Notes: generated from the letters alone by a model not told the origin. 64,000 nucleotides of DNA from an uncultured bacterium (GCA_964606385.1 CAZSFZ010000001.1:136304-200303); one strand, 5' to 3'; shown: positions 16,453 through 59,661, counted from the first letter of the stretch. Numbers and translations: made by a program.

Positions 16453-16633
16453 TTTTTTGCCTCTAATAGAAGAGTACTCTACAAAACAATACAAAACAAT
16501 AGCACCTTAATACTTTTTTATATTATTTTTCTATTTATAGCTATATATAGCGTTTTTCATAGTATTTTATAGTATGTTTAAACACAAAGATGATCATATT
16601 TTGAGCATCATAAAAAATAAGGATTTTTGACGC
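16453..16633 (-). promoter_or_regulatory. AT-rich island carrying the promoter/regulatory region of the giant gene
   Basis: This is about 180 bp of roughly 25% GC in an otherwise roughly 58% GC window, between the GH57 stop (TAG 16634-16636) and the giant-gene start. It contains a tandem 10-mer acaaaacaat x2 (16481-16500), the palindrome ctatatatag (16541-16550) and the palindrome atgatcat. No confident -35/-10 pair could be assigned. Confidence 0.5.
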
Positions 16634-19126: not shown

Positions 19127-19287
19127 AATCGGTAAACCCTCTTTTGATTCACTCAAAGAGGCAACTTTTGGGGAAAATTATAGCACGGCAGGAAACCGGG
19201 CGGGATGGTTTTTCTTTTAAAGCTCCAAAAACCAATCTCCAAATTCCAAACAAACCCGTTTGACTTTTGGATCTTCCCAGCAGAGGT

Positions 19288-22129: not shown

Positions 22130-22158
22130 GACGCTGCCTCGCTAGGGTTGATAGGGCC

Positions 22159-27630: not shown

Positions 27631-27674
27631 ATTTCGACAGAAAAACCATTCCCTTGAGAGACGTCGGAGAGCGT

Positions 27675-27742
27675 GGAACGGGTAACGGGAAACGATAAAA
27701 GCCCCTTTGCGCAACGTTCTCCGTTAGCCGTTTCCCGGTTTC
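27675..27742. repeat. heptad AACGG motif locus 1: ggaacgg-gtaacgg-gaaacg (27675-27694) with inverted partner cgtttcccggtttc (27729-27742)
   Basis: Three NNAACGG heptamers occur in tandem. There is a 9-bp perfect inverted repeat cgggaaacg/cgtttcccg separated by about 34 nt. The locus lies between the ftsH promoter region and the stop of the 153-aa gene. Confidence 0.5.
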
Positions 27743-27745
27743 TAG

Positions 27746-28207
27746 CTACCACCAGTAATCGTCCGCTTTAGCGGACTCGGTCTCCCGAGCTTCCTGGAAA
27801 GCCTCAGGCTGCATCGCCTCGGAGCCTTCCCGGTCTGCTTCGCCTTGCACTCCTTCTTCTAAGGAAGTTTTCTCCAAAGACTCGGAGGCGGCAGGCGCCT
27901 CGGTGGGCTGTTCTTCCCACCATCCCGCGGTATCATCGGCGGCAGGGGTCTTCGCCGTCACAGGCTCCTGGGAACCTTTCTTCTCTTTGCTGAACGGAGG
28001 GTCAATAAAGAAACTTTCGCGGGGGTTGTTTTTGACGTGATACATCAGAGGACCTTTTTTGCCGTCTTTTTCCTCTTCTTTTTTCTGTTCGTAGAGAATG
28101 CCGTTCGTCTGCGTATCCCGGATAGGGTTCTCCGCCTTGCGGACCGTCCCGAGACTCAAACCCGCTAGAACAAGCAAAAAGATACAAAACCATGTGTTTT
28201 TGTTCAT
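27746..28207 (-). CDS. hypothetical small secreted acidic protein (153 aa)
   Basis: It has the signal peptide MNKNTWFCIFLLVLAGLSLGTV and an acidic, low-complexity C-terminal half ending DDYWW. Confidence 0.45.
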   Translation of the reverse strand: MNKNTWFCIFLLVLAGLSLGTVRKAENPIRDTQTNGILYEQKKEEEKDGKKGPLMYHVKNNPRESFFIDPPFSKEKKGSQEPVTAKTPAADDTAGWWEEQPTEAPAASESLEKTSLEEGVQGEADREGSEAMQPEAFQEARETESAKADDYWW

Positions 28208-28276
28208 AAGTAAAGGATAGCGGATAAGGGCGGAAAGTGCAAATTCGCTTCTGCGGCGGGAAACGTGAACGAATGC

Positions 28277-28303
28277 GTTAACCGTTCCCCGTTTCCCGTT
28301 CCC
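28277..28303. repeat. heptad AACGG motif locus 2 (minus-strand reading gggaacgg-gaaacgg-ggaacgg-ttaa), overlapping the last 8 codons and stop of uvrA
   Basis: The same GGAACGGGAAACG core as loci 1 and 3 is present. It encodes the UvrA C-terminal tail ..RERETGNG*. Confidence 0.5.
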
Positions 28304-31064
28304 TCATATACTGTTTCAGATGCTTCCCTGTATAGGAAGATTCACATTTCATAAGTCCTTCCACAGAGCCCTGATACACCACTTCCCCGCCTCGGTCGCC
28401 GCCCTCGGGGCCCAGATCGATCACATGGTCCGCGAGCCGGATGAGCCCGAGATGATGTTCGATCACAAGAAGCGAATGGCCCCGGTCCAGAAGTTCTTCA
28501 AAGGCACGGATCAGATGACGGGCATCGTCTTCATGAAGCCCCGTCGTGGGTTCGTCCAGGAGATAGAGCGAAGGGCCGGTGCTTCCTGCGGAAAGCTCAT
28601 AGGCGAGTTTCAGGCGCTGGGCTTCGCCCCCCGAAAGCGTCAGTGTCGGTTGCCCGAGCTTCAAGTATCCCAGGCCGATCTTTTGGAGGATCGAGAGTTT
28701 TTCGACCAGCCCCCTGCTGTGATCCAAAAACACCAGAACTTCGTCCACGGTCATGTTGAGCACATCATCGATATTCTTTCCTTCATAACGGATCTCCAGC
28801 ACCTCCGGCTTGAAACGTTTTCCGCGGCATTCTTCGCAGGGCACAAAAATATCCGCGAGAAAATGCATCTCGACCTTAACGGCACCATCCCCCTCGCAAA
28901 CGAGACAGCGTCCCTTTTCGACATTAAATGAAAAATAACCCGCGTCGAGACCTTCGCGCTTCGCTTCGGGGGTCGACGCGAAGACCTTGCGGACGTCCTC
29001 GAACGCCTTCATATAAGTCGCCGGATTGGAGCGCGGGGAGCGGCCCAGGGGCGACTGGTCGATCAGCACCATTTCCGAAAGATGCTCCAGCCCGCGGATC
29101 TTCTCCACAGTCCCCAATTCCTCCTGGGAGACCGGGCGCCCCTTGAACTTGAGGAAGTGGTTGTAAAGGATCTCATAAAGAAAAGTGCTTTTGCCGGAAC
29201 CGGAAACACCCGTCAGGACCGTGAATTTTCCGAGCGGGATCTCGACATTAATATTTTTAAGGTTATGCGCTTTTGCCCCCTGAACCTGAAGCTTGTGCTT
29301 TGCCGGGAGCGCCCTGGGAAGCTTGCGGTCGATCCCCCGCTTGCCTGAGAGATATTCCCCTGTCACGGAAGTCGGACACTTCTTAAGCTCCTCGACACTA
29401 CCTTGAAAAAGGAGTTCGCCGCCCTTGGCACCCCCCGCGGGGCCCAGGTCGATCACGCAATCCGCAGCCCCGATCATGGTCCGGTCATGCTCCACCACCA
29501 CGACCGTATTCCCGACATCGCGAAGCTTCCGCAGGAGCGCGATCAGCATCTGGTTGTCGCGTTCATGAAGTCCGATCGAGGGTTCATCCAGAACATAGAG
29601 CGTGTCCACCAGGGCCGACCCGAGAGAGCTCGCGAGGTGGATACGCTCCACCTCCCCGCCCGAAAGCGTCCGGGACATGCGGTCAAGCGTCAGGTACCCG
29701 AGCCCCACATCCTTCAGAAAACGCGCGCGGTGCAGCAGTTCGGTCTGAACGGGCTCCACCTTTTCCCGTTCTTCAGCGGTCAATTCCAGGGACTCCAGGA
29801 ATTTAAGGAACTCATCCATGCTGAGCGCCTGGACCTGGGCGATGTGCCGCCCCTGGATCAGGAAATCGAGTGCCTCGGGTTTCAGGCGCGTCACGCGGCA
29901 CGTTTCGCAAGGCGCGTAACCCCGGTAACGGTTGAGGAAGATCCTTACATGCATTTTGTAGGTTTTTTTGTTCATGTACTCGAAGAATTCGCGGACGCTC
30001 ACAAAATCATCCCCTTCGTAACCTTCGAGGATCCACTGACGGACTTGCGGCTTGAGTTTGGCCCAGGGGGTCCGGATCGGAATGCGCTTACGCCCGCAAA
30101 AATCCAGGAGCTGGCCTTGCTCCCACCGGGTACTGGCCTTGGTCCAAGGCTCAATGGCCCCGTCACGAATCGATTTGGAAGGATCGGGAACTACAAGATC
30201 CCAATCGACCGTGATCACGCGTCCGAATCCCTGACAGGCGGGGCAGGCGCCAAGAGGGCTGTTAAATGAAAAAAGGTTGGGAGAAGGTTCCGGGAACGAC
30301 CTCCCGCAGGAAGCGCATTGGGACCTCTCGGAAAATTTCAGGACCTCCTCCCCCGCCCACACACAAGCCTCCCCGCGGCCCAGGCGGAACGCCTGTTCAA
30401 AAGAATCCGTAAGCCTTTCCTTGTTCGACGTTCCGATCTTGATCCGGTCCACGCTGACCGACAGTTCTTTCCCGGCGGTTTTTCGCTTCAAGAGGGCCGC
30501 GCTGTCGACCCACGTACCGTCATAAAAAAAATCCGAAAAACCCTGACGCTCCAGTTCTTCCAGGTTTTCGCGGAGGTAGGGGGCGGTCTTTTTCCCGAGC
30601 GTGACCTGAAAAGCGATGCGCGCTTCCCTGCCGGAAAATTTTTCCATGAGATAAGCGGCGGCTTTCGAAGGATCGAACCGCGTGACAGGGGTTTTGCAGG
30701 CCGGGCATTGCAGCCGTCCCGCGCGCGCGAAAAGCACCCGCAGGTGGTCGTTGATCTCGGTCTGCGTTCCGACCGTGGAGCGGGCATTCGTAACGGTGTT
30801 CTTGGCCTGGATGGCCAGCGCGGGAGGGATCCCTGAGGCGGATTCAAGGTCGGGTTTTTCCATCCGCTCGAGGAACTGGCGGGCGTACGCGGAAACCGAT
30901 TCGATGTAACGCCGCTGGCCTTCCGCGTACAGCGTGTCAAAAGCGAGGGAGGATTTGCCGGAGCCGGAGACCCCGGTGATCACATAGAGTTTCCGGTGCG
31001 GAAGCTCGAGATCAAGATTTTTTAGATTGTGGGTTTTGACCCCACGGAGGCGGATCGCATCCAA
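28278..31064 (-). CDS. uvrA: excinuclease ABC subunit A
   Basis: At 928 aa, it has two ABC ATPase modules (GVSGSGKSSLAF; GVSGSGKSTFLYE), zinc-finger CxxC pairs and typical UvrA order. Confidence 0.9.
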   Translation of the reverse strand: MDAIRLRGVKTHNLKNLDLELPHRKLYVITGVSGSGKSSLAFDTLYAEGQRRYIESVSAYARQFLERMEKPDLESASGIPPALAIQAKNTVTNARSTVGTQTEINDHLRVLFARAGRLQCPACKTPVTRFDPSKAAAYLMEKFSGREARIAFQVTLGKKTAPYLRENLEELERQGFSDFFYDGTWVDSAALLKRKTAGKELSVSVDRIKIGTSNKERLTDSFEQAFRLGRGEACVWAGEEVLKFSERSQCASCGRSFPEPSPNLFSFNSPLGACPACQGFGRVITVDWDLVVPDPSKSIRDGAIEPWTKASTRWEQGQLLDFCGRKRIPIRTPWAKLKPQVRQWILEGYEGDDFVSVREFFEYMNKKTYKMHVRIFLNRYRGYAPCETCRVTRLKPEALDFLIQGRHIAQVQALSMDEFLKFLESLELTAEEREKVEPVQTELLHRARFLKDVGLGYLTLDRMSRTLSGGEVERIHLASSLGSALVDTLYVLDEPSIGLHERDNQMLIALLRKLRDVGNTVVVVEHDRTMIGAADCVIDLGPAGGAKGGELLFQGSVEELKKCPTSVTGEYLSGKRGIDRKLPRALPAKHKLQVQGAKAHNLKNINVEIPLGKFTVLTGVSGSGKSTFLYEILYNHFLKFKGRPVSQEELGTVEKIRGLEHLSEMVLIDQSPLGRSPRSNPATYMKAFEDVRKVFASTPEAKREGLDAGYFSFNVEKGRCLVCEGDGAVKVEMHFLADIFVPCEECRGKRFKPEVLEIRYEGKNIDDVLNMTVDEVLVFLDHSRGLVEKLSILQKIGLGYLKLGQPTLTLSGGEAQRLKLAYELSAGSTGPSLYLLDEPTTGLHEDDARHLIRAFEELLDRGHSLLVIEHHLGLIRLADHVIDLGPEGGDRGGEVVYQGSVEGLMKCESSYTGKHLKQYMRERETGNG

Positions 31065-43410: not shown

Positions 43411-44685
43411 TTAAACTCGTTCGCCGCGGACGAGGTCCTGGTAGGTCTCGCGTTTACGGACCACCTTAAAAGCGGAACCTTTGACCATCACTTCGCACGC
43501 CCGGGGACGGGAATTGTAATTCGAAGCCATGGTGAATCCGTAGGCGCCGGTGGTCATAATGGCCAGATGATCGCCCGCTTTCATTTCCAGGAGCTCGCGG
43601 TTCTTCGCGAAAAAATCGCCGCTTTCACAGATCGGCCCGACGACATCGTAGACCCACGCGTGCGCGTTTTCGTTTTTCGCAACCGGCCAGATATGATGAA
43701 AGGCGTTATAGAACGCGGGACGGATGAAATCATTCATGCCCGCGTCCACGATCGCGAACTTCTTCACGTCCGTTTCCTTCACATAGATCACCTTCGTCGC
43801 GAGAATGCCGCTGTTGGCCGCGATGAAACGCCCCGGCTCGAAGATGAGCTGGAACTTCCGTTTTTTAAAAAGAGGCAGGATCTTCCGCGCGAATTCATCC
43901 GCCGTTTGGGGATTTTCATCGCTGTAAATGGCGCCGAGGCCGCCGCCCAGGTTCAAGAATTTGATCCTGATACCGTCCTGCTGGAGCTCATCGATGAATT
44001 CCAGGATCTTCCTGAAAGCTTCCACGAAGGGGTCCCCGTTCTCGATCTGGGAGCCGATATGCACATGCACGCCCGTGACCTGCGCATGGCTGAAGTTCCT
44101 CGCGCTTTTGAAGATCTCGCGCGCCTTCTCAAAATCGATGCCGAACTTGGTCTCGGCCTTGCCCGTCGTGATGTATTCGTGGGTATGCGGGTCCACATTC
44201 GGATTGATCCGGAGCGACACGTTCACTTTCTTGCGCATCTTTTTGGCAATCGCGTTGATCTGTTCGAGTTCCGGCATGGATTCCACGTTAAAAAGAAGGA
44301 TCCGGGCCTTAATCGCCGCGCGGATCTCTTCCGCCGTTTTCCCGACGCCGGCGTAAACGATCTTCTTGCCCTGGCATTTCGCTTTTTTCGCCCGGAAAAG
44401 TTCCCCGCCGGAGACAATGTCCAGCCCCGCGCCTTTTTTGACGAGCGCGCGAAGGACCGCCAGGTTCGAGTTCGCCTTCACCGAATAGCAAATGAGGGGT
44501 TTCGCCGACCGGAAGGCCTTCTGGAGCTTGGCGAGATGTTCCGTGAAGGTTTTCTGGCTGTAGATATAAGCGGGCGTACCCGTTTTTTTCAGGATCTTCG
44601 AAGCGCGGACCTTATCGCAATAAAGTTCGCCCTTCTTGTAATAGAAGTCGTGCATTTTCTCTTCGTGAAAATCGGTACGGGACAT
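43411..44685 (-). CDS. lysA: diaminopimelate decarboxylase
   Basis: It has the PLP fold-III CYSVKANSN motif, a GGG motif, the CESGD active-site context and about 420 aa. Confidence 0.85.
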   Translation of the reverse strand: MSRTDFHEEKMHDFYYKKGELYCDKVRASKILKKTGTPAYIYSQKTFTEHLAKLQKAFRSAKPLICYSVKANSNLAVLRALVKKGAGLDIVSGGELFRAKKAKCQGKKIVYAGVGKTAEEIRAAIKARILLFNVESMPELEQINAIAKKMRKKVNVSLRINPNVDPHTHEYITTGKAETKFGIDFEKAREIFKSARNFSHAQVTGVHVHIGSQIENGDPFVEAFRKILEFIDELQQDGIRIKFLNLGGGLGAIYSDENPQTADEFARKILPLFKKRKFQLIFEPGRFIAANSGILATKVIYVKETDVKKFAIVDAGMNDFIRPAFYNAFHHIWPVAKNENAHAWVYDVVGPICESGDFFAKNRELLEMKAGDHLAIMTTGAYGFTMASNYNSRPRACEVMVKGSAFKVVRKRETYQDLVRGERV

Positions 44686-44820: not shown

Positions 44821-46197
44821 TTACAACGTTTTCTTCCATGCGGCAATCGTTTGCCTGACCTGAGCGGGATGCGTGCTTCCGATCGTTTTCTTGCCTTTGA
44901 CGGACTCTTTCGCATCAAAAAGATCGTGGATGTCCGCGCCGAACTTGGGCGAGAACTTTTGCCACTCCTTGACGGACCATTCCCGAAGCCTTCTCTCGGA
45001 TTCGATCGCCTGCCGGACGGTCTGGCCCACAAGAGCATGCGCTTCGCTGAAGGGAACTTTTTTCCTCACCAGATATTCCAGGATGTCCGTCGCGAAAAGG
45101 CTGTCGTCATCAAGCGACTTTGAAAGCGCTTTTTTATTCCAGCTCGCGGAGCCCACGGCCAGCGCCAGAAGCTCCAGCGCGATCCCCGTCTTTTTCACGG
45201 CGTCGAATACCCCGGGCTTGTCCTCCTGAAGGTCCCGGTTATAAGAAAGCGGCAGGCCTTTTTGAACGGTCAGAAGGGCCTGAAGGTGACCGAAGATCAC
45301 GCCGGCCCGGCCGCGCACGAGTTCGAACACATCCGGATTTTTCTTCTGCGGCATGAGGCTCGAGCCCGTCGCGAACGCGTCATCGAGCTCCACGTACCCG
45401 AACGCCTCGGAATTCCAGAGAATGAAATCCTCCGAAAGCCTTGAAAGGTGGGTCCACAAAATGGCAAGGGCGCTCAGGATCTCCGCGAACGATCCCCGGT
45501 CGCTCACGGCCGCCATGCTGTTTTTCGCGATCCCGGAAAAACCAAGTTCTTTCATAAGGAATTTCTGGTCCAAAGGCAGGGCGGAACCCGCGAGCGCGGC
45601 CGAACCGAGCGGCAGAATATTGATCCTTTTCATAGCATCCGCGAGACGTCCGTTGTCCTCATCCAGCATTTCAACATAGGCCAGGAGGTGATGCGCGAGA
45701 AGCACCGGCTGCGCTTTCCGCAGATGCGTCATGCCCGGGAAGATGAGGCCTTCCACTTTTTCCGCGGCGGTCACGAGCGCTTTTTGGAGTTTTTTATTCC
45801 TCAACCAGATCTCAGCGACCTTCTCCCGGAGATAGATCCGGGTCGAAGTGATCACGAGATCGTTCCGGCTCCGTCCGGTATGAAGTTTTTTCGCCACCGC
45901 GCCGGCTTTTTTCTCAAGTTCCGCCTGGATCAGCGTATGGATGTCTTCATATTGGCAGGCGTAGGCCGCAAGGTCTTTGCCCCCGAAGCTCTTTTCGATG
46001 GCGGCGAGCCCTTTCAGGATGGCTTTAGCTTCCGTTCCGGTGATGATCGCGATTTTCGCGAGCATTTTCGTCCACGCACGGTTCACGCGGAGCTCCGCGT
46101 CAAAAAGCTCCTTGTCCGTCGCGAGCGAATAGCTGAAGCATTTGAGCGCCGGATGCATTTCCTTCTTGAACCTTCCACCCCAGAGTTTTTTTGCCAT
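44821..46197 (-). CDS. argH: argininosuccinate lyase
   Basis: At 458 aa, it starts MAKKLWGGRF and carries the fumarate-lyase signature GSSLMPQKKNPD. Confidence 0.9.
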   Translation of the reverse strand: MAKKLWGGRFKKEMHPALKCFSYSLATDKELFDAELRVNRAWTKMLAKIAIITGTEAKAILKGLAAIEKSFGGKDLAAYACQYEDIHTLIQAELEKKAGAVAKKLHTGRSRNDLVITSTRIYLREKVAEIWLRNKKLQKALVTAAEKVEGLIFPGMTHLRKAQPVLLAHHLLAYVEMLDEDNGRLADAMKRINILPLGSAALAGSALPLDQKFLMKELGFSGIAKNSMAAVSDRGSFAEILSALAILWTHLSRLSEDFILWNSEAFGYVELDDAFATGSSLMPQKKNPDVFELVRGRAGVIFGHLQALLTVQKGLPLSYNRDLQEDKPGVFDAVKKTGIALELLALAVGSASWNKKALSKSLDDDSLFATDILEYLVRKKVPFSEAHALVGQTVRQAIESERRLREWSVKEWQKFSPKFGADIHDLFDAKESVKGKKTIGSTHPAQVRQTIAAWKKTL

Positions 46198-46205
46198 AAA
46201 CCACC

Positions 46206-46286
46206 TTAGCGTATAGGGTTTAGGGTATAGGGCATAGGATATAGTTTCGCTTTTCTAAACCCCATCCCCTACCCACTATCCTCTAA
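46206..46286. repeat. telomere-like palindromic intercistronic repeat element, copy A (argG stop to argH Shine-Dalgarno)
   Basis: The sequence is ttagcgtatagggtttagggtatagggcatagg...ttttctaaaccccatcccctacccactatcctctaa. It is about 85% identical to copy B at 49603-49676, has the inverted-repeat core gggtttag/ctaaaccc, and has G3/C3 tracts. Confidence 0.7.
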
Positions 46287-47467
46287 TTTTTGTACATTCC
46301 CTCGTACGGAAGTCCCCAGATCTTCATGAAACCGGCCGAGGCTTTCCGGTCGAACATGTCGCCTTTCGAGTACGTTGCTAATTTTTCTTTATAAAGAGCG
46401 TATTTTGACTCGCGTCCCACACAGATCGCATGGCCCCGGTCGAGCTTGATCCGGACTTTTCCCGTCACACGCGCCTGATTGGACGCGAAGAAAGCGTCGA
46501 GCGACCGCTTGAGCGGCGAGAACCAGAGGCCGAAATACACAAGCTCCGCATATTTTTCCGTCAGGAGCCGCTTGTAATGGAGAAATTCCCGGTCCATTAC
46601 AAAGCCTTCGAGTTCTTCGTGGGCTTTTAAAAGCACATCGGCGGCCGGCGCTTCGTAAACCTCGCGGCTTTTGATCCCCACGAGTCGGTTCTCGATCATA
46701 TCAAACCGCCCGACGCCGTACTGTCCGGCGATCATATTCAGTTTTTCGATCAGGTCCACAAGCGGCATCCGGGCCCCGTTCAATTTCACCGGCACGCCTT
46801 TTTCAAAAGTAATCTCAATATAACGCGGTTTCTTCGGGGCCTTGGCCGGAGCACAGGTCATGACATACGCGGCTTCCGGCGGCTCGACCATGGGGTCCTC
46901 CAAAATCCCAGCTTCGATCGCGATCCCCCAGATATTTTTGTCGATCGAGTAAGGACTTTTCTTGGTCACATCGATCGGGATCTCGCGCTCGAGGGCGTAC
47001 TCGATCTCTTCTTCGCGCGTCTTGAATTCCCAGTCCCGGAGCGGAGCGATGATCTTCAGTTCCGGATCAAGCGTTCTGACGCCCACCTCAAGCCGCACCT
47101 GGTCATTCCCTTTCCCCGTGCAGCCGTGCGCCACATAACCAGCGCCTTCTTTTTGCGCGACTTCTACCAAGTGTTTGGCGATCAGGGGCCGTCCAAGCGC
47201 CGTCGCGAGCGGGTACTTTCCTTCATAACGCGCGTGCGCCCAAAGCGCCGGCATGATGTAATCCTTCGCGAATTCTTCCTTGAGGTCCACGATAAAGGTC
47301 TTGATCGCGCCCGCGGCCTTGGCTCGCTTGATCAAGGGCGCTTTTTCCTTCACTTCGCCGATGAACGCCGAAAAGCAGATCACGTCCAACCCGTGGTTTT
47401 CCCCGAGCCATTTCACCGCGCAAGAGGTATCAAGCCCTCCGGAATAAGCCAATACGACTTTCTTCAT
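46283..47467 (-). CDS. argG: argininosuccinate synthase
   Basis: At 394 aa, it has the AYSGGLDTS PP-loop. Confidence 0.9.
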   Translation of the reverse strand: MKKVVLAYSGGLDTSCAVKWLGENHGLDVICFSAFIGEVKEKAPLIKRAKAAGAIKTFIVDLKEEFAKDYIMPALWAHARYEGKYPLATALGRPLIAKHLVEVAQKEGAGYVAHGCTGKGNDQVRLEVGVRTLDPELKIIAPLRDWEFKTREEEIEYALEREIPIDVTKKSPYSIDKNIWGIAIEAGILEDPMVEPPEAAYVMTCAPAKAPKKPRYIEITFEKGVPVKLNGARMPLVDLIEKLNMIAGQYGVGRFDMIENRLVGIKSREVYEAPAADVLLKAHEELEGFVMDREFLHYKRLLTEKYAELVYFGLWFSPLKRSLDAFFASNQARVTGKVRIKLDRGHAICVGRESKYALYKEKLATYSKGDMFDRKASAGFMKIWGLPYEGMYKN

Positions 47468-48399
47468 TGGATCGCTCCTTGGTTAAAAAGATAAAGCAAA
47501 ACAGCTTTTTGAATATGCAGCCGGTTCTCGGCCTCGTCGAACACGACGCAGTTCTTGCTTTCCATCACATCGTTCGTGATCTCTTCGCCCCGGTGTGCCG
47601 GCAGGCAATGCATCACAAGCGCGTCTTTCTTCGCATGCGCGAGAAGCGCCTTATTGATCTGCATGCCCTTGAAATCCTTAAGCTTTTTCTTCCGCATCGA
47701 TTCTTCGCCCATGCTGACCCACACATCCGTGTAGATCGCGTCGGCATCCTTCACGGCCTTCGCGGGATCCGAAAATCCTTCGATCACGGCGCCGGTCTTT
47801 TTGGCAATCTGTTTGGCGAGCGCCAAGAGCTTGGGCTTCGGCTGGTATTTCTTGGGCGTCGCGTACCGAATCTTCGCGCCCAATTTCGCGGCTACAAGCA
47901 TCAGCGAATGCAGGACATTATTCCCATCGCCCACGAAAGCAAGCACGGGGTCCTTCTCCGCCGGGATTTTTTCATAAAGCGTCATGTAATCGGCAAGCGC
48001 CTGGCACGGATGCTCGAGATCGCTTAAACCGTTGATCACGGGTTTCTCGAAATAGTCCTGGAATTCGGTAATGGTCCAATGCGAAAAGGTCCTCATCACG
48101 ACTCCCGAAAGATACCGCGACAGCACGCGCGCGACATCGCGCACTTCTTCCCGGACGCCGAGCTTGATGTCCTCGGGCCCGAGATAGATCACGCCGCCGC
48201 CCATCGAATAAATGCCGGCCTGAAAAGACACCCAGGTCCGCGTCGAGGGCTTCTCAAAAATGAACCCGAAGATATGGCCTTCGAGCGCGTCCCGGACTTC
48301 CTGGGGACGGGCCTTGACCTTGGCCGCGAGCTCCATGATCTTGCGGATTTCTTCGGAGCTGAGATCGTTCACTGAGATCAATGATTTGAACATGCGCAA
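47464..48399 (-). CDS. argF: ornithine carbamoyltransferase
   Basis: It has STRTR, HCLP and about 310 aa. The start may be M3 (48393). Confidence 0.85.
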   Translation of the reverse strand: MRMFKSLISVNDLSSEEIRKIMELAAKVKARPQEVRDALEGHIFGFIFEKPSTRTWVSFQAGIYSMGGGVIYLGPEDIKLGVREEVRDVARVLSRYLSGVVMRTFSHWTITEFQDYFEKPVINGLSDLEHPCQALADYMTLYEKIPAEKDPVLAFVGDGNNVLHSLMLVAAKLGAKIRYATPKKYQPKPKLLALAKQIAKKTGAVIEGFSDPAKAVKDADAIYTDVWVSMGEESMRKKKLKDFKGMQINKALLAHAKKDALVMHCLPAHRGEEITNDVMESKNCVVFDEAENRLHIQKAVLLYLFNQGAIQ

Positions 48400-49598
48400 C
48401 CTTCACTTTTCTTTGAGAGTTTCATAAAAACGTTGTCGAGGATCTTCATGCCGTGTTTGATCTCTTTGGCCGAGACCGTCATCGGCGGCATGACCCTCAG
48501 GATATCTCCTTGCGTCGCGTTGATCAGAAGCCCCTGCTCGCGGGCTTCCGTCGCGTAAGGCGCGGAAGGTTCCTTGAGCTTCAGGCCCCGCATGAGCCCT
48601 ACGCCGCGCGTGCTATCGATCACGGAATACTTGGCCTTGAGCTTCTGGAATTCCTGCTCCAGCAGCTCTCCCATCCGGACCGTATTCGTAAGAAGTTTTT
48701 CCTTTTTGATCGCCTTGAAGACCGCGAGGCTCGCCGCGCACACAAGCGGGTTCCCGCCGTAGGTCGAGCCATGCATCCCGGCCACGAGCACTTCACGCGT
48801 GATCTTCCGGCTGATCAGAAAAGCCCCGATCGGCGTTCCGCCGCCCAAGGTCTTCGCGAGCGTCATGATATCGGGTTCGATCCCGTAATGCTGGTAAGCG
48901 AACATCTTGCCCGTACGCCCCATCCCGGTTTGCACTTCATCCAGAATAAGAAGCATGTCTTTTTCGTCGCAAAGTTTCCGGAGGCCTTGCATAAATTCTT
49001 GTGTCGCCACCGAAACACCGCCCTCGCCCTGGATCGGCTCGAGCATGACCGCGATGGTCTTGTCAGTCACAAGCTTTTTAACCGAATCGAGATCGTTAAA
49101 ATCCGCGTGGAGGAATTTTTCCATGAGCGGTTGAAAACCTTCGTGGAACTTGCCCTGCCCCGTCGCGCGCATGGCGGCAAGCGTCCTGCCATGAAAGGAA
49201 TTCTTCATGGTGATGATCTCGTAACGCCCCGTGTCGCTGCCGTACTTTTTCGCGAATTTGATCGCGCCTTCGTTCGCCTCGGCGCCGCTATTGCAGAAAA
49301 AAACGCGGGACGGAAATGAGGCTTCGACAAGCGTCCGGGCAAGTTCAGCCTGCTTCACGTTCAGGAAATTATTGGCTACATGAAGGATCTTGCGCGCCTG
49401 TTCTTTGACCGCGCTCACGACCCTGGGATGACAGTGACCGATCCCCGAAACAGCCCAGCCCGGGAAAAAATCGAGGTATTCTTTGCCTTCCAGGTCCCAA
49501 ACGCGCGAGCCCTTCCCTTTCACGAGGCATACAGGCACCCGCGTGTAGGTCGGCATCACATATTGATCGTAGAGTTTTTGAACGTCGTTTGTTTTCAT
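48378..49598 (-). CDS. argD: acetylornithine aminotransferase
   Basis: It is a class-III aminotransferase with DEVQTGMGRTG and a PLP-lysine context, at 406 aa. Confidence 0.85.
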   Translation of the reverse strand: MKTNDVQKLYDQYVMPTYTRVPVCLVKGKGSRVWDLEGKEYLDFFPGWAVSGIGHCHPRVVSAVKEQARKILHVANNFLNVKQAELARTLVEASFPSRVFFCNSGAEANEGAIKFAKKYGSDTGRYEIITMKNSFHGRTLAAMRATGQGKFHEGFQPLMEKFLHADFNDLDSVKKLVTDKTIAVMLEPIQGEGGVSVATQEFMQGLRKLCDEKDMLLILDEVQTGMGRTGKMFAYQHYGIEPDIMTLAKTLGGGTPIGAFLISRKITREVLVAGMHGSTYGGNPLVCAASLAVFKAIKKEKLLTNTVRMGELLEQEFQKLKAKYSVIDSTRGVGLMRGLKLKEPSAPYATEAREQGLLINATQGDILRVMPPMTVSAKEIKHGMKILDNVFMKLSKKSEGCACSNH

Positions 49599-49602
49599 AA
49601 TT

Positions 49603-49676
49603 TTAGCGTATAGGGTTTAGGGGATAGGGTATAAAAGGCTTTTCCTAAACCCTATACCCTACCCTCTATCCCCTAA
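49603..49676. repeat. telomere-like palindromic intercistronic repeat element, copy B (argB stop to argD start)
   Basis: The sequence is ttagcgtatagggtttaggggatagggtata-aaaggctttt-cctaaaccctataccctaccctctatcccctaa. There is a 13-bp perfect stem tatagggtttagg/cctaaaccctata. The minus (mRNA-sense) strand reads GGGGATAGAGGGTAGGGTATAGGG, a canonical four-tract G-quadruplex motif. Confidence 0.7.
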
Positions 49677-50527
49677 AGTGTGATTTCCGTCCCGATCCCT
49701 TGATCGGTGAAAATTTCGAGCAAAAGAGCGTGCGTGATGCGGCCGTCGATGATGTGCGCTTTCGGGACCCCGCCCCGGAGCGCGTCAATGCAGGCTTTCA
49801 CTTTGGGGATCATGCCCCCCGAAATAATGCCCTGATCGATCAGTTTCTGTGTGTCGTCCACATGAAGCGAGGGGATCAGCGTCTCGTCATTCGTGTGGTC
49901 CCGCAGGATCCCTTTCACGTTCGTAAGTACCATGAACTTGTGCGTGTTCATCGCCGCCGCGATATTCGCCGCCGCTTCATCCGCATTCACGTTATACATC
50001 TCGCCGTCCGGCCCTTTTCCGACCGGAAAGATCACCGGAATCCGGCCGAATTCCGTCAATTCTTTAAGCGGCACCGTATTCACGGAACTGACATCCCCGA
50101 CAAACCCGATATCTCCGTTTTCGGTGTTCTTCACGACGTTCAAAATCTCCGCGCCGTAGCCCGAAAGCCCGACCGCCGAACCGCCGAGCCGTTCGATATC
50201 ATGAACGATGCTCCGGTTGAGCTCCGCCAGCGTTTCATTGACGACCTCGATCGCCGCCTTGTCCGTCACGCGGAGGCCGTTAATGAACTGGCTCTGGATG
50301 CCTTTCTTCTTCATGTTCTCGGTGATGTATTTCCCGCCGCCATGGATCAGGATCGGCCGGATCCCGACATAGCTCATGAAGACAAGGTCCTGGAGCACCA
50401 TGTCCCGCACTTCCTGATAGGTCAGCGCCGCGCCGCCGTACTTGATGAGAACTTCCTTCCCCCGGAACTTCTGGATATAGGGAAGGGCCTCGATCAGAAC
50501 GTTGGCTTTTTCGATGAGTTTCTGCAT
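49673..50527 (-). CDS. argB: acetylglutamate kinase
   Basis: At 284 aa, it has VLIKYGGAA and the amino-acid kinase fold. Confidence 0.9.
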   Translation of the reverse strand: MQKLIEKANVLIEALPYIQKFRGKEVLIKYGGAALTYQEVRDMVLQDLVFMSYVGIRPILIHGGGKYITENMKKKGIQSQFINGLRVTDKAAIEVVNETLAELNRSIVHDIERLGGSAVGLSGYGAEILNVVKNTENGDIGFVGDVSSVNTVPLKELTEFGRIPVIFPVGKGPDGEMYNVNADEAAANIAAAMNTHKFMVLTNVKGILRDHTNDETLIPSLHVDDTQKLIDQGIISGGMIPKVKACIDALRGGVPKAHIIDGRITHALLLEIFTDQGIGTEITL

Positions 50528-50530
50528 TTT

Positions 50531-51751
50531 TTAAGAGTAGGCCGCGTTGATCAGCACGTATTTCGTCGTGAGATCCGAGGTAATGAACTCCGCCCGGCCG
50601 CGTCCTTTTCCAATCGTCACATCGATCGTGTATTCTTTTTTCTGAAGGATGCGCCGCGCTTTCGGAAGGTTCAGCACCCGAAGCCGTCCCTGGCTTACGA
50701 CCTGCGCGTCCCCGAACCAGATGCTCAGATTGTTCGGATTGAAATCCACGCCGCTCGCGCCGACCGCCGCCGCGATGCGGCCCCAGTTCGGATTCGAACC
50801 CGCGAGCATGGTCTTGAAAAGCATGGAGTTCGCGATCTGCCGCGCCGCGCGTTCCGCGTCCGTAGGCTTTTTCGCTCCCGACACCCGGAGCCGGCATACA
50901 TGCGTTACGCCTTCGCCGTCCACGACCATCTCGTGGGCGATATAGCGCATGACCTCTTCCAGGGTCTCCCGGAACATCCAGTAATCCTTGCCGATCTTGT
51001 GGATCGGAGGGTTCCCCGCTTCGCCGTTCGCGAGGCAAAGCACCATATCGTTCGTGCTCATGTCGTTATCGATCGCCATCTGGTTGAACGTATCATCCGC
51101 CGCGTGGCGCACCGCCCGCCGCAGGAGCGACTTCGTGATCGCGCAATCGGTCGTGATGAAACAAAGCATGGTCGCCATATTGGGGTGCACCATTCCCGCG
51201 CCTTTCGCGCAGGCCGCGATCGTCACTTTTTTGCCGCCCAATTCGACCGACAAGGCGATCTCTTTGCTGGAAAGGTCCGTCGTCAGGATCCCTTTCGCCG
51301 CCCCGTGGCCGCCATTCTCGGAAAGCCGGTTCGCAAGCCTCGGAAGCGCCCGCTTCACGCAGGTGATCGGAAAAGGAACGCCGATGATCCCCGTTTGAGC
51401 GATCAGCACTTCTTGAGGTAACACGTCGAGATATTTCGCCGTCTCCCAGGTGATCTCGTCGACCGCTTTTTTTCCGATCGGACCGTTCAGACAGTTCGCG
51501 TTCCCGCTTGTCCCGATGATCGCGTGATGCTTCGAAGCATGAATGGCCTTCATCGAATAAAGCACCGGCCAAGCTTTTGCGCGATTGGTCGTGAACGTTC
51601 CCGCCGCGACGCACGGCGTCTTGGAATAGATCAGGGAAACGTCGTATTTCTTTTTCTTCTTTTTGATCCCCGCGTGGATGCCGCCCGCGATAAAACCCTT
51701 CGGTGTCGTGACCGAACCGTTCTTTTCTTTCTTCCAAAAAGGTTTCTTCAC
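50531..51751 (-). CDS. argJ: bifunctional glutamate N-acetyltransferase/amino-acid acetyltransferase
   Basis: It has the autoproteolytic site context PNMATMLCFITTD and about 405 aa. The start is GTG (51749-51751), with an AAGGGAGAG Shine-Dalgarno sequence 8 nt upstream. Confidence 0.85.
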   Translation of the reverse strand: MKKPFWKKEKNGSVTTPKGFIAGGIHAGIKKKKKKYDVSLIYSKTPCVAAGTFTTNRAKAWPVLYSMKAIHASKHHAIIGTSGNANCLNGPIGKKAVDEITWETAKYLDVLPQEVLIAQTGIIGVPFPITCVKRALPRLANRLSENGGHGAAKGILTTDLSSKEIALSVELGGKKVTIAACAKGAGMVHPNMATMLCFITTDCAITKSLLRRAVRHAADDTFNQMAIDNDMSTNDMVLCLANGEAGNPPIHKIGKDYWMFRETLEEVMRYIAHEMVVDGEGVTHVCRLRVSGAKKPTDAERAARQIANSMLFKTMLAGSNPNWGRIAAAVGASGVDFNPNNLSIWFGDAQVVSQGRLRVLNLPKARRILQKKEYTIDVTIGKGRGRAEFITSDLTTKYVLINAAYS

Positions 51752-51826: not shown

Positions 51827-52849
51827 TTAAAGGAGTCCCGCCTCCTCGGGGAATCCAAACCGGATGTTCATGTTTTGCACGGCCTGCCCGGCCGCTCCTT
51901 TGACAAGATTGTCGATCGCCGTGAGGATCACCACGCGTTTCGTTTCCTCCTGCACGCTCACGCCGATATCGCAAAAATTCGTGTGCTGCACGTCTTTCAG
52001 GCACGGGTACTGCCCCGCCGGCTTGACCCGCACAAAAGGCGCCTTCTGGTACGCCGTTTCGAGTGTTTCCCGGATCTTGCTTTCGGTTGCCCTGGCCGTT
52101 GTCTGGGCATAAATCGTCGCGAGAATCCCCCGATTCACCGGCAAAAGATGCGGCACGAACGTGATCTTCACGGGTTTTCCCGCCGCCAGCGAAAGCGTCT
52201 GCTCGATCTCGGGCGTATGTTGGTGTTTATTCACCTTGTAAGCATTGTAGTTCTCGTCCACTTCACAGTAATGCGTCGCGGTCACAAGTTTTTTGCCCGC
52301 GCCGCTCACCCCCGAAGCCGCGTTAATGATGATCGTGGCGGGATCGATCAGTTTTTTCTTCAGAAGCGGGATCAACGCGAGCGAAGGCCCCGTCGGATAA
52401 CATCCCGGATTCGCGATCAGGTCCGCCTTTTTGATCTTTTCCCGGTTGATCTCGCAAAGCCCGTAAACCGCTTTCGAAAGATACTGGGGCGCGACATGGT
52501 TCACGCCGTACCACTTCTCATAGATCTTCCGGTCCTTCAGGCGAAAATCCGCCGAAAGATCGATCACCACCTTGCCGGCCGCGAGGAGCTGTTCCGCCGC
52601 CGTCATGGCTTCCGTATGGGGCAGGCATAAAAAAACCACATCCGCCTTTTTTTTCACCGCGTCAAAGGAATAAGGCGTGATCTCAAGGGCAATATTCTTG
52701 GCGACCGAAGGAAGGATCTCTCGAAGGGCGATGGCTTTTTCCTGCCGGGTGGTCAAGAGAGCGACCTTGGCATGAGGATGGCCCAAGAGAAGCTTTGTCA
52801 GCTCAGCTCCGGTATATCCCGTTGCACCGAGTACCGCACAATTCAGCAT
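51827..52849 (-). CDS. argC: N-acetyl-gamma-glutamyl-phosphate reductase
   Basis: It has VLGATGYTG and the catalytic GCYPT motif. The start is taken at ATG 52847-52849 (MLNCAV), downstream of the predicted transcription start site. The ORF-track start 52927 lies inside the promoter -35. Confidence 0.85.
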   Translation of the reverse strand: MLNCAVLGATGYTGAELTKLLLGHPHAKVALLTTRQEKAIALREILPSVAKNIALEITPYSFDAVKKKADVVFLCLPHTEAMTAAEQLLAAGKVVIDLSADFRLKDRKIYEKWYGVNHVAPQYLSKAVYGLCEINREKIKKADLIANPGCYPTGPSLALIPLLKKKLIDPATIIINAASGVSGAGKKLVTATHYCEVDENYNAYKVNKHQHTPEIEQTLSLAAGKPVKITFVPHLLPVNRGILATIYAQTTARATESKIRETLETAYQKAPFVRVKPAGQYPCLKDVQHTNFCDIGVSVQEETKRVVILTAIDNLVKGAAGQAVQNMNIRFGFPEEAGLL

Positions 52850-52898
52850 GGAATGCACTTTTCTCCTTTTAGTACAATTTAAGGCTAGCGAACTGGGT

Positions 52899-52927
52899 AT
52901 TATAGAAATGGCTCTATCCTTTGTCAA
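52899..52927 (-). promoter_or_regulatory. argC operon promoter (minus strand TTGACA-17-TATAAT)
   Basis: On the plus strand, attata is at 52899-52904 and tgtcaa at 52922-52927. On the minus strand this reads TTGACAaaggatagagccatttcTATAAT. It lies about 45 nt upstream of the argC ATG, which has an AAAGGAGAAAAG Shine-Dalgarno sequence. Confidence 0.65.
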
Positions 52928-53020: not shown

Positions 53021-53049
53021 TTGACAGGGCCCGCAAAAACTCCTATCCT
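53021..53049 (+). promoter_or_regulatory. rnc promoter (TTGACA 53021-53026, 17-nt spacer, TATCCT 53044-53049)
   Basis: The pair has consensus spacing and lies divergent from the argC promoter, 94 bp away. The ORF-track 'start' of the extended rnc ORF is the TTG of this -35 hexamer. Confidence 0.55.
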
Positions 53050-53094
53050 TGTCCCTGATCTTTTTTTCTTAACGGGTGACAAGGATTGCCCCCA

Positions 53095-53128
53095 TTTCAA
53101 CTCCGTTGAAATTGATAAGAATTGGAAC
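53095..53128 (+). promoter_or_regulatory. conserved 5'-leader element, copy 1 (rnc leader)
   Basis: The sequence is tttcaactccgttgaaattgataagaattggaac: the palindrome TTTCAAC-N4-GTTGAAA followed by TTGATnnGAATTGG. It ends 13 nt before the rnc ATG. A second copy, about 31/35 identical, sits in the same position relative to the AsmA-like gene start (56417-56449). Confidence 0.6.
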
Positions 53129-53140
53129 TATGGTAGGTGT

Positions 53141-53899
53141 ATGCTGAAACAGAGGTCCTTCCCAGCCCTTCCCAATAAGGGAAGTTTACGTAAGATTCTC
53201 GGATTTCCCGTCAGGTCCCTTGCTCTTTATCGTGCCGCCCTGACACACCCATCCTTTCGTAATGAAAATTTCCGTCTTACCAGGGATTTGGAGGATTTTG
53301 ACCGTTTGGAGTTCCTGGGAGATTCCATCCTGAACGAGGTTATCTGCCAGAAATTATACGAGAAATTTCCCGAGGCAGACGAAGGCATGCTCTCCAAACT
53401 GCGTTCGATCCTTGTTTCGCAAAGGATCCTGAGCCGCATCGCGCAAGCCCTCAAGCTCCAGAACGCGCTCCTGATCAGCAAGAGCCTGCGGCAGAATTTC
53501 AAGGACCTCCTCAAGGCCAAACTTCTCACGGACGCCCTCGAGGCGCTTTTCGCGGCGATTTATTTCGATCGCGGCCGCGCCAAGGTCGAAGCGTTCATTT
53601 TGAAACATTTCAAAACCTATTTTGACCCGAAACTTCTTTTTCGGCTGGATCCGAATCCCAAAAGCACCCTGCAGGAAATGACCTTGAAGCAATGGCAAAA
53701 ACTTCCCGAATACACGCACGCCTTCTCCGAAAAAGGGGTCCGGACCACGGTTTCCGCGGGGGGGAAACGAAAGGCCACGGCCCTTCACAAGATCAAGAGG
53801 GAATCGGAGGTCCTGGCCGCGCGGGCCCTGATCAGGAAATTGAGAAAGGAATTCCGGAAACAAAAAATCCGCGCCCGGACGCGCGGATCAAGATCTTAA
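53141..53899 (+). CDS. rnc: ribonuclease III
   Basis: It has the RNase III signature ERLEFLGDS and a C-terminal dsRBD. The start is taken at ATG 53141. Confidence 0.85.
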   Translation: MLKQRSFPALPNKGSLRKILGFPVRSLALYRAALTHPSFRNENFRLTRDLEDFDRLEFLGDSILNEVICQKLYEKFPEADEGMLSKLRSILVSQRILSRIAQALKLQNALLISKSLRQNFKDLLKAKLLTDALEALFAAIYFDRGRAKVEAFILKHFKTYFDPKLLFRLDPNPKSTLQEMTLKQWQKLPEYTHAFSEKGVRTTVSAGGKRKATALHKIKRESEVLAARALIRKLRKEFRKQKIRARTRGSRS

Positions 53900-56395: not shown

Positions 56396-56416
56396 GGTTC
56401 CCCGTCTCTTGCTGGT

Positions 56417-56449
56417 CCCAATTCCAATCAATTTCAACAGAATTGAAAC
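56417..56449 (-). promoter_or_regulatory. conserved 5'-leader element, copy 2 (leader of the AsmA-like gene)
   Basis: The minus-strand reading is gtttcaattctgttgaaattgattggaattggg, ending 22 nt before the start codon. Confidence 0.6.
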
Positions 56450-58584: not shown

Positions 58585-58607
58585 TTATTCGCTCCACGAA
58601 CCAAGGG

Positions 58608-58641
58608 CCACGGGCCACGAAAACCCTCTCGTGGCTCGTGG
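58608..58641 (-). promoter_or_regulatory. GC-rich hairpin between asd stop and truA start
   Basis: The stem is ccacgggccacga paired with tcgtggctcgtgg (one mismatch) with an 8-nt loop. No U-tract follows, so it is not a canonical intrinsic terminator. Confidence 0.35.
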
Positions 58642-58656
58642 TGCGTGGTCCGTGGC

Positions 58657-59661
58657 TCAGCTTGCGAAAGCTAGCTCCGCGATCTGGACCGCGTTCAGCG
58701 CGGCGCCCTTGCGGATCTGGTCACCGCAAACGAACATCGAAAGACCGTTCTTCACGGTCGGGTCCTGGCGCAAGCGGCCGACCAGGATATCATCCTGCCC
58801 TGTCGCTTCGAGCGGCATCGGAAAATAATTCTTCTCGCGGTCATCGATCACCTTCACGCCGGGCGCTTTGGCAAGCAGCTGACGGGCTTCCTCCGCCGAG
58901 ATCGGTCTTTCCGTTTCGATCGTGAGCGCTTCGGAATGGGCCCGGAGCACGGGGACGCGCACGCAGGTCGCGGTGATCCGGATATCGGGATCATGGAAGA
59001 TCTTCTTGGTCTCTTTCACCATCTTGGTCTCTTCTTCGTTATATCCGTCCGGCCCGATCTTGGAGTTATGGGAGAACACGTTGAACGCGATCTGGTGCGG
59101 CAGGACTTTTTTCTGAACGGGTTTTCCAGCCAGAAAATCCTGCGCCTGGATCTTGAGTTCCTCCATCGCTTTCGCCCCGGCGCCGCTCGCGGCCTGATAG
59201 GTCGCCGCGACCAAACGCTTGATCTTCACGACCTTGTGGATCGGCCAAAGCGGCACAAGAGCGATGATCGTCGAACAGTTCGGGTTTGCGATAATTCCTT
59301 TGTTCTTGGCGATATCCCCGGCATTGATCTCGGGAATGACAAGCGGGATCTCGGGATCCATCCGGAAAGCGCTCGTGTTGTCGACCATCAGAGCGCCGGA
59401 TTTCACAATGTGCGGCGCAAGCTCGCGGCTGATCGCCCCGCCCGCGCTTGAGAGCACCACATCAAGCCCTTTGAAGGAATCGGGTTTCGCTTCTTGGACT
59501 TCATAGTTTTTCGCCATGAATTCGATCTTTTTGCCGGCGGAACGTCCGGAGGCCAGAAACCTCAGCTCCTCGATCGGGAACTTGCGCTCTTTCAAGAGCT
59601 CAAGGAATTCCTGACCCACTGCGCCTGTAACCCCTAACACCGCGACCTTCAACTTCTTCAT
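58657..59661 (-). CDS. asd: aspartate-semialdehyde dehydrogenase
   Basis: It has VAVLGVTGAVGQ and the active-site Cys in ANPNCSTI, at 334 aa. Confidence 0.9.
   Translation of the reverse strand: MKKLKVAVLGVTGAVGQEFLELLKERKFPIEELRFLASGRSAGKKIEFMAKNYEVQEAKPDSFKGLDVVLSSAGGAISRELAPHIVKSGALMVDNTSAFRMDPEIPLVIPEINAGDIAKNKGIIANPNCSTIIALVPLWPIHKVVKIKRLVAATYQAASGAGAKAMEELKIQAQDFLAGKPVQKKVLPHQIAFNVFSHNSKIGPDGYNEEETKMVKETKKIFHDPDIRITATCVRVPVLRAHSEALTIETERPISAEEARQLLAKAPGVKVIDDREKNYFPMPLEATGQDDILVGRLRQDPTVKNGLSMFVCGDQIRKGAALNAVQIAELAFAS

Follow-up and report, generated by a model that had tools for sequence, protein, structure and literature searches.

What is the palindromic, seven-base repeat that fills the gap between argB and argD in a 64,000-nt stretch of DNA from an uncultured bacterium (GCA_964606385.1, CAZSFZ010000001.1:136304-200303; the whole stretch is hereafter the window)? 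The host lineage is Candidatus Omnitrophota, as homologs with 86–98% identity to its ArgB bear Omnitrophota names at NCBI, and two contigs of metagenome-assembled genomes (MAGs) in GTDB, L066 (Omnitrophica RIFOXYB12_FULL_50_7) and L081, align with the window at ~80–82% nucleotide identity. We favor, with moderate confidence, an interpretation in which this element (copy B) and its sister between argG and argH (copy A) belong to a family of dispersed inverted heptanucleotide-array palindromes located at Omnitrophota gene boundaries. They would be slippage-prone at the DNA level, evolve in concert and undergo exchange resembling that of repetitive extragenic palindromic (REP) sequences, and their transcript would form an intercistronic stem-loop. 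Copies A and B, and the features within copy B, are:

49603-49676, minus strand: copy B, an inverted heptamer-array palindrome occupying the whole argB|argD spacer (74 nt)
49673-49675, minus strand: argB stop codon TAG, contributed by the initial heptamer unit and located, paired, at the base of the predicted stem
49649-49672, minus strand: canonical G-quadruplex motif GGGGATAGAGGGTAGGGTATAGGG on the sense strand, wholly inside the copy B 5′ arm, with four G-tracts and loops of at most 7 nt
46206-46285, minus strand: copy A, of the same unit family as copy B, spanning the argG|argH spacer

Copy B follows the plan (TAGGGNN)x4-5, loop, (NNCCCTA)x3 + CGCTAA. On the mRNA strand, the 5′ arm reads UAGGGGA UAGAGGG UAGGGUA UAGGGUU UAGG (49675 down to 49644), the loop AAAAGCCUUU (~49643-49632) and the 3′ arm UAUACCC UAUCCCC UAAACCC UAUACGC UAA (49631 down to 49603), followed by AAUU and the argD AUG; the sequence 3′ of the stem is ACGCUAAAAUUAUG. 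Tandem Repeats Finder detects a period of 7 with 4.3 copies in copy B and 5.4 copies in copy A, and the UAG triplet occurs five times in copy B at exact 7-nt spacing. Pairing between the two arms is possible in at least four registers, shifted by steps of 7 nt; the longest register involves 32-nt arms with 78% complementarity, and one 18-nt register at 94% includes a perfect stem (49608-49621 x 49644-49657). The predicted RNA fold reaches −35.8 kcal/mol (z = −4.9), a stability matched by none of 200 shuffled sequences. A reading made from the sequence alone (the sequence-only reading) had described a palindromic intercistronic repeat with a second copy, which is genuine, as copy A shares the 20-mer CCCTAAACCCTATACGCTAA. 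It had also run copy B from the argB stop to 5 nt before the argD ATG and assigned it a 13-bp perfect stem: the element does start at the stop codon and abuts the argD start, but the gap between its final base (49603) and the ATG (49598-49596) is 4 nt, and the perfect stem measures 14 bp and is one of several registers.

Copy A is built in the same way. The argG stop codon TAG (46285-46283) lies within its first unit and its 3′ end (...CCCTAAACCCTATACGCTAA, common to both copies) is followed by the Shine-Dalgarno (SD) sequence AAGGTGG (46199-46205) and by the argH ATG at 46197. Its fold is weaker than that of copy B (−29 kcal/mol, z ~−1.6). The window holds six occurrences of CCCTAN{1,6}CCCTA against 0.11 expected, and an Rfam scan of the whole window returned no match at the gathering threshold.

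A uniform-window lag-p self-similarity scan of 202 kb of pooled Omnitrophota DNA, comprising the window and eight relatives, retrieved 23 arrays of period 7 and 11 of its period-14 harmonic, versus 0–2 arrays for each other period from 4 to 13 and ~0 in shuffled sequences. All 23 period-7 arrays are intergenic or overlap a stop codon according to the gene tables of the relatives. On the basis of this placement and of the scarcity of other periods, we conclude that seven-base periodicity specifically marks the intergenic DNA of this lineage. That the repeat is low-complexity sequence arisen by chance, or an assembly artefact, has a negligible probability: the element is short, which is all that speaks for this explanation, and it is excluded by the period-7 and CCCTAN{1,6}CCCTA statistics, by the identical sequence found in two independent Logan assemblies and by homologous elements in independent MAGs.

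These arrays share a general anatomy. First comes a purine- and G-rich arm, made of four to five units of 7 nt, which begins at the upstream stop codon or contributes it; an A/T-rich loop of ~10–13 nt and a complementary arm follow, the latter stopping a few bases before the next ribosome-binding region. According to a tally of arm compositions, nearly all Omnitrophota elements with definable arms have a purine-rich 5′ arm. Elements also occur in divergent promoter regions, such as rnc|argC of L125, L126 and L128. In the window, the same organization recurs with other units:

58591-58659, minus strand: CCACGNN/CGTGGNN-family element in the asd|truA spacer (Pfam), right after a TGA stop
28208-28308, minus strand: CGGGAAA-family element at the end of uvrA, detected by the lag self-similarity scan
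27655-27748, minus strand: second CGGGAAA-family element, directly 3′ of a TAG stop

The asd|truA element (GCCACGG ACCACGC ACCACGA GCCACGA, loop, CGTGGCC CGTGGCC CTTGGTT CGTGG) folds as RNA to −44.8 kcal/mol (z = −5.7). At the uvrA end, the arm GAGGGAA CGGGAAA CGGGGAA CGGTTAA provides the final codons and the TAA stop of uvrA, and the complementary arm TTTCCGC CCTTATC CGCTATC ends 10 nt 5′ of the next ATG. The second CGGGAAA-family element (AAACCGG GAAACGG CTAACGG AGAACG, loop, CGTTTCC CGTTACC CGTTCCA CGCTCTC) is separated from ftsH by a ~120-nt leader, and the two together flank a 153-residue open reading frame (ORF) downstream of uvrA. The 64 kb thus contain at least five inverted heptamer elements from three unit families, two of them of the TAGGG family. 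A possible, weaker sixth element (19223-19273) lies in the 131-nt spacer after a 195-residue flavodoxin-like gene and reads GATCCAAAAGTCAAAC ... TTTGGAA TTTGGAG ATTGGTT TTTGGAG; its CCAANNN/TTGGNNN flavor is that of large arrays at L128 argF|argG and L126 argH|lysA.

To follow the elements at orthologous positions, the junctions of the arg operons were tabulated for the eight relatives and for one very close relative, L173. At argB|argD, L066 carries TAGGG units, with a 5′ arm near-identical to that of the window and a 3′ arm one unit longer. The L128 spacer reads TAGCGGA TAGCGCA GAGCGTG ... CTCTACG CTAAACG CTCCCCG CTGTACG CTAAAAAUU-AUG, so that its ends match those of the window element (3′ end TACGCTAAAAATT-ATG) but both arms have GCG/CGC in place of GGG/CCC. 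L126 has CAGGGNN and CCCTGNN-type units at this junction, and L123 and L124 have GTGAAAC and GCTTCAC units. In L173, the ArgB protein of which is 98% identical and the coding flanks of which are ~92% identical, the spacer is occupied by an unrelated hairpin of 82 nt from the CCACG/CGTGG family, with a fold of −37.2 kcal/mol.

Other junctions behave similarly. The argG|argH arrays are made of GCGCAAC/GTTGCGC in L126, GGCGTAC/GTACGCC in L128 and GAAGCTA/TAGCTTC in L129, and the CCACG units of the asd|truA site in the window have as their counterparts a TAGGG-type element in L081 and, in L128, a TAAGCG-type array. The argJ|argB site is empty in the window, L123, L124, L126, L129 and L173 (gap of at most 7 nt or overlapping genes, the latter in L124), is filled by a heptamer element in L066, L125, L127 and L128, and holds a 45-nt simple hairpin in L122. 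Comparison of the filled L066 site with the empty site of the window shows a direct repeat, TAAAAAA, on either side of the former. Both CGGGAAA sites are empty in L172, where the uvrA-end spacer is the 10-nt sequence CGGAAAGCGG; this sequence resembles a single proto-unit. For comparison with MITEs, which are characterized by terminal inverted repeats and a target-site duplication, the element ends read TTAG(G/C)G...C(G/C)CTAA. TAGGG-family elements within a genome tend to a single flavor (TAGGG in the window and in L066, TAGCG in L128). The 3′-end variants TA and AA before CGCTAA were considered as evidence of within-genome homogenization and dropped, as the L118 copy from the L066 MAG misfits. 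A distinct dispersed repeat, GTCATTCCCGCGAAKGCGGGAATCCAG ... GGATCCCCGAYARAAGCATTCGGGGATGAC, forming two adjacent hairpins, occupies the argD|argF spacers of L126 (12135-12287) and L128 (12121-12207) where the window has overlapping genes.

Taken together, these comparisons show the elements behaving as fast-turnover cassettes at the DNA level: the number of whole units changes, the units of both arms are altered together, and filled sites alternate with empty ones. They likewise show a wholesale swap for another unit family while the flanking genes stay ~92% identical. Conserved features are the period of 7 nt, the inverted arrangement with the purine arm first and the location at gene boundaries; the unit sequence, the G-quadruplex potential, the telomere resemblance and the link to genes devoid of an SD sequence are not conserved.

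We propose that the arrays could arise by 7-nt replication slippage combined with arm-to-arm correction in an extruded hairpin, and that copying or recombination between dispersed family members may further spread them. Such elements would behave as REP- or REPIN-like populations tolerated in non-coding DNA only. In the arg mRNA, copy B would fold into an imperfect stem-loop of ~25–30 bp slipping between registers, with the argB UAG in the stem base and the stem 3′ end ~12 nt ahead of the argD AUG. This stem-loop might act as a barrier to 3′ exonucleases or as an RNase III-type substrate, as do other intercistronic and REP-type hairpins, and a terminating ribosome would have to open it; the model includes neither a G-quadruplex switch nor a substitute for the SD sequence.

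The canonical G-quadruplex motif that the sequence-only reading had placed on the copy B mRNA strand is present, and a sense-strand RNA or DNA quadruplex regulating or replacing ribosome recruitment at SD-less genes might be envisaged. We regard this as highly improbable. Related heptamer repeats form quadruplexes in vitro (PMC4692102) and, among 19 related heptamer-hairpin spacers, the canonical G3+N1-7 motif occurs on the sense strand of three (copy B, L066 argB|argD and one L081 element) and on the antisense strand of one, but copy A and 15 of the 19 lack it, and whole unit families (GCGCAAC, GGCGTAC, GAAGCTA, GTGAAAC, CCACGNN) are devoid of G-tracts. In addition, the G-rich arm is complementary to the other arm, which creates a competing hairpin of −36 kcal/mol. 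Since elements are replaced wholesale at orthologous sites, G-quadruplex potential is not the conserved property, and the model is largely refuted by the comparative data.

The proposed association with weak ribosome-binding sites fares no better. It was claimed that the motif recurs ahead of starts lacking a good SD sequence, which is true of copy B but not of copy A, as AAGGTGG follows the latter. Among 99 called genes of the relatives, 44 have a strong SD sequence and 56 any SD-like sequence, and roughly half of the genes of this clade are SD-less in any case. In every lineage argD and argB are SD-less, whether the spacer holds an element or is just 3–7 nt long, and argH always has an SD sequence even behind an element (for example AAGGTGG, GTGGTGG or GGAG). 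SD absence therefore tracks the gene rather than the element, which also counts against the quadruplex model. A degenerate third copy had been reported at the following position:

22142-22158, minus strand: ordinary SD-bearing spacer of ~29–30 nt, sequence CCCTATCAACCCTAGCG

This assignment does not hold. The two CCCTA motifs are 9 nt apart with no inverted arm and are followed by the spacer's own SD sequence, GAGG; in a relative with 95% protein identity, the 29-nt spacer is identical apart from a change of one CCCTA to CTCTA, an 81% relative has an unrelated 21-nt spacer, and neither contains an element. A chance match of this kind has a probability of ~0.1 per window. The description as telomere-like reflects a mere resemblance of one unit variant, TAGGGTT, and the same junction in close relatives has unrelated units. 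A telomeric repeat proper, a long homogeneous array at the end of a linear replicon, was rejected because the units, four to five in number, are heterogeneous and because the element is located within an operon and pairs with its own complement.

We then considered how widely this architecture is distributed. A scan of a genome collection with CCCTANNCCCTANNCGCTAA retrieved at least 119 loci and revealed the relatives L066 and L081, and as ~280 chance matches are estimated in 596 Gb, individual matches are weak evidence. The hosts among the matches listed, which include isolates, belong to Acidobacteriota, Bacteroidota, Patescibacteria, Planctomycetota, Elusimicrobia, Nitrospirota, Gemmatimonadota, Proteobacteria, Firmicutes, cyanobacteria and others. 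Extra in-phase units were found in 85 of the 119 matches listed, and an inverted partner lies within 120 nt upstream in 39 and downstream in 2 of them (controls, 0 and 5). An unanchored set of 43 further inverted heptamer pairs, taken from these loci, comprises 31 with a purine-rich 5′ arm and 12 with a pyrimidine-rich one. A rule requiring more A than T in the 5′ arm was promising in Omnitrophota elements but failed in this unanchored cross-phylum set (17 vs 23), in which purine richness alone held, and was abandoned. Among the matches listed, 93 of the 104 classifiable ones are intergenic, and the flanking genes are co-directional in 63, divergent in 19 and convergent in 11 (baseline 302, 84 and 73), which corresponds to 20% between divergent genes versus 18% in the baseline. 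A metagenome scan with the exact 20-mer gave 41 matches, many of them long CCCTAAA arrays and ~7 of them bacterial hairpins.

An unlikely but more novel reading is that a dedicated mechanism common to bacterial phyla, as opposed to ordinary slippage, writes inverted heptamer arrays at gene boundaries and rewrites them there. It might consist of reiterative 7-nt synthesis of a purine-rich strand and subsequent snap-back copying, which would account for the polarity with the purine arm first; alternatively, a hairpin-targeting transposase or recombinase acting on single-stranded DNA could swap cassettes. Were this true, near-identical metagenomic relatives with differing cassettes at one junction would be snapshots of its activity. 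Two of the genomes retrieved, L077 (Bacteroidetes bin ErkenSummer_bin-0977) and L105 (Thermoguttaceae MAG SPRUCE 73), contain about eight separate inverted heptamer arrays per 8-kb locus, and an array appears to be present in nearly every intergenic region of these genomes. In L138 (~4560-4664), a TAGGG-type inverted heptamer element lies right after an apparent tRNA-gene 3′ end (GGTTCAATTCC...).

Several observations weigh against our interpretation of the elements as dispersed, slippage-prone DNA palindromes. Their copy number and dispersal in the source genome are extrapolated from 64 kb. The 39:2 polarity is partly confounded by the anchoring of the pattern on CGCTAA, and the long CCCTAAA arrays are probably eukaryotic telomeric DNA, which weakens part of the cross-phylum and metagenome matches. 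No Y1-transposase family match was found in 16 scanned ORFs of the ~45 genes of the window, a scan that was not a search for mobilizing genes, and there is no consistent target-site duplication, the TAAAAAA repeat at L066 argJ|argB being the sole hint and none being present at the other sites compared. Furthermore, the sense RNA is more stable than the antisense RNA by 8.0 kcal/mol for copy A and 5.8 kcal/mol for copy B, with 3–4 G-U pairs, which hints at an RNA-level constraint on these two copies, and the persistence of a hairpin at argB|argD in nearly all lineages could reflect selection for RNA structure.

The last two points bring up the most serious alternative, which we deem possible although distinctly less probable: a selected intercistronic RNA stem-loop that tunes the operon at argB|argD and argG|argH as a stabilizer, an RNase III or RNase E site, a partial attenuator devoid of U-tract or a device for translational coupling, for which heptamer arrays would be the easiest route to regenerating a long stem. 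The relevant genes and promoter, in the minus-strand operon argCJBDFGH-lysA identified with NCBIfam, are:

52899-52927, minus strand: sigma-70-type consensus promoter TTGACA-17-TATAAT (12/12 positions), 5′ of argC
51827-52927, minus strand: argC
50531-51751, minus strand: argJ
49673-50527, minus strand: argB
48378-49598, minus strand: argD
47464-48399, minus strand: argF
46283-47467, minus strand: argG
44821-46197, minus strand: argH
43411-44685, minus strand: lysA

Given the perfect promoter ahead of argC and the lack of any terminator-like call at copies A and B, we infer that both copies are intercistronic within one polycistronic transcript. An intrinsic terminator was itself rejected as an identity for the elements on account of the missing U-tract and terminator call, and of divergent intergenic regions not being depleted of matches. 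In favor of selection on RNA, most spacers still form a single long stem despite turnover, and a stable hairpin (z ≤ −2.9) is maintained at argB|argD in 6/8 lineages despite complete sequence turnover. In the window and in L066, L122 and L128, the stem base includes the paired stop codon, which together with a 3′ side abutting the next start provides a basis for coupling, and a few degenerate elements (L122, L125) show, like copies A and B, a far greater stability of the sense RNA and numerous G-U pairs. Across 21 spacers, however, there is no overall bias of sense over antisense stability (10/21, Wilcoxon p = 0.47), and the elements have neither a U-tract nor a terminator-like call. The class also occupies the divergent rnc|argC promoter regions mentioned above and lies between divergent genes at about the baseline frequency in the cross-phylum set, and argJ|argB and several other sites are empty in close relatives. 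The gene encoding RNase III, rnc (53021-53899, plus strand), is the divergent neighbor of argC, with synteny kept in 8/8 relatives. This is circumstantial support for a selected stem-loop, and its location beside an operon with long intercistronic stems resembling double-stranded RNA is curious and may be a coincidence.

The regular spacing of UAG triplets invites a further comparison. HutP binds UAG-N4-UAG-N4-UAG in the hut terminator region, and the copy B 5′ arm resembles the RNA targets of HutP and TRAP in that UAG triplets recur 7 nt apart in a stem-forming region between cistrons. The elements could accordingly be binding-site arrays for a multimeric RNA- or DNA-binding protein, in which 7 nt is the protomer spacing and the unit flavors reflect co-evolution with the binder, a scenario we judge very unlikely. 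The five UAGs at exact 7-nt spacing and the single flavor per genome of TAGGG-family elements would fit it, and a post-transcriptional regulator has been proposed for TAACTGA repeats (PMC4679880) and a heptamer-binding protein for Nostoc (bioRxiv 10.1101/2022.06.06.494920), the latter as a speculation. Unlike HutP and TRAP targets, however, sister elements lack UAG and there is no terminator U-tract. Each genome contains several unrelated unit families (CCACG, CGGGAAA, GCGCAAC, GGCGTAC, CCAAGAA), most of them without UAG, the sites are sequestered in a strong stem, and no HutP-like protein or other candidate binder was identified.

Bacterial heptanucleotide repeats have been noted since work on STRR (short tandemly repeated repetitive) sequences around 1990, and the STRR1-3 consensus heptamers belong to heterocystous cyanobacteria. 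The present units differ from the STRR1-3 consensus and from TAACTGA, so that the likeness to STRR is architectural only: tandem heptamers are dispersed in intergenic DNA, often right 5′ of start codons, as in STRR, TAACTGA and Geobacter repeats, but those are mostly direct arrays with lineage-specific consensus units and the present elements are inverted pairs. The TAACTGA repeats of Beggiatoaceae lie just 5′ of start codons, in regions with few canonical ribosome-binding sites (MacGregor 2015, PMC4679880), and heptanucleotide elements are also listed for Geobacter (Aklujkar et al. 2009, PMC2700814).

The closest precedent for the architecture is the set of heptameric repeats, GGGAATC in Xanthomonas and GGGGA(C/T)T in Nostoc, which lie between genes and most often comprise four units (Rehm et al. 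2015, PMC4692102). Each Xanthomonas genome has 70–75 convergent inverted pairs capable of forming stem-loops, the gene context is kept between two species while the length varies, and the repeats are transcribed with no function found. According to that paper's account of earlier work, heptamers are over-represented among long simple sequence repeats, possibly via polymerase slippage. The present elements share with these repeats 7-nt units with a G3-4 tract in about four copies (TAGGGGA, TAGAGGG, TAGGGTA and TAGGGTT in copy B), two arrays in convergent, G-arm-first inverted orientation, an intergenic location with the argB and argG stops inside the first unit, and a preserved gene context with variable length among close relatives. 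They differ by the unit TAGGGNN/NNCCCTA with its CGCTAA end and by the Omnitrophota host, by the same architecture being built here also from non-G-rich units, and by wholesale replacement at orthologous sites. Copy B is thus a genuine member of the heptameric-repeat inverted-pair class, new in unit sequence and phylum.

For population behavior, the nearest described analogue is the REPIN. Like REPs and REPINs, the elements are short extragenic imperfect palindromes arranged as inverted doublets that form a long hairpin, with several families per genome, population-like within-genome evolution and a position at gene ends inside operons. E. coli REP hairpins stabilize upstream mRNA and, near a stop codon, affect translation; no REP family is known from Omnitrophota. 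The arms of REPs are small hairpins with a conserved 5′ GTAG, unlike the tandem 7-nt arrays described here, and the GTAG found in copy B is incidental (GGTAGGG) and absent from other unit families. REPINs are inverted REP doublets mobilized by RAYT transposases (Bertels and Rainey 2011, PMC3116915; PMC3337134).

The locus thus shows, in an uncultured phylum, that periodicity, inversion and gene-boundary position are retained while unit sequence and G-quadruplex potential are not, that whole elements are exchanged between otherwise near-identical genomes, and that the same architecture recurs in many phyla. What had been a descriptive curiosity becomes a comparative system, as orthologous junctions from public metagenomes could serve to time gains, losses and replacements and to search for a co-occurring enzyme. 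It also carries a warning for annotation, since one unit variant is no basis for invoking G-quadruplex or telomere biology.

Other repeats were noted in the window. Inverted repeats of 34 nt with 85% complementarity (53095-53128 and 56415-56448), 3.3 kb apart, bracket rnc and an AsmA-like gene. A giant ORF of 5277 residues (661-16494, minus strand) contains at least 14 tandem repeats of 258 nt (86 residues), and its orthologs in relatives are 4316–6319 residues long, with faint Glug, YDG and Laminin_G matches. Just 3′ of its stop codon lies a perfect 21-nt inverted repeat, ACCCCACCTCGTAGGTGTGGT / ACCACACCTACGAGGTGGGGT (590-610 and 630-650), with a 19-nt spacer.

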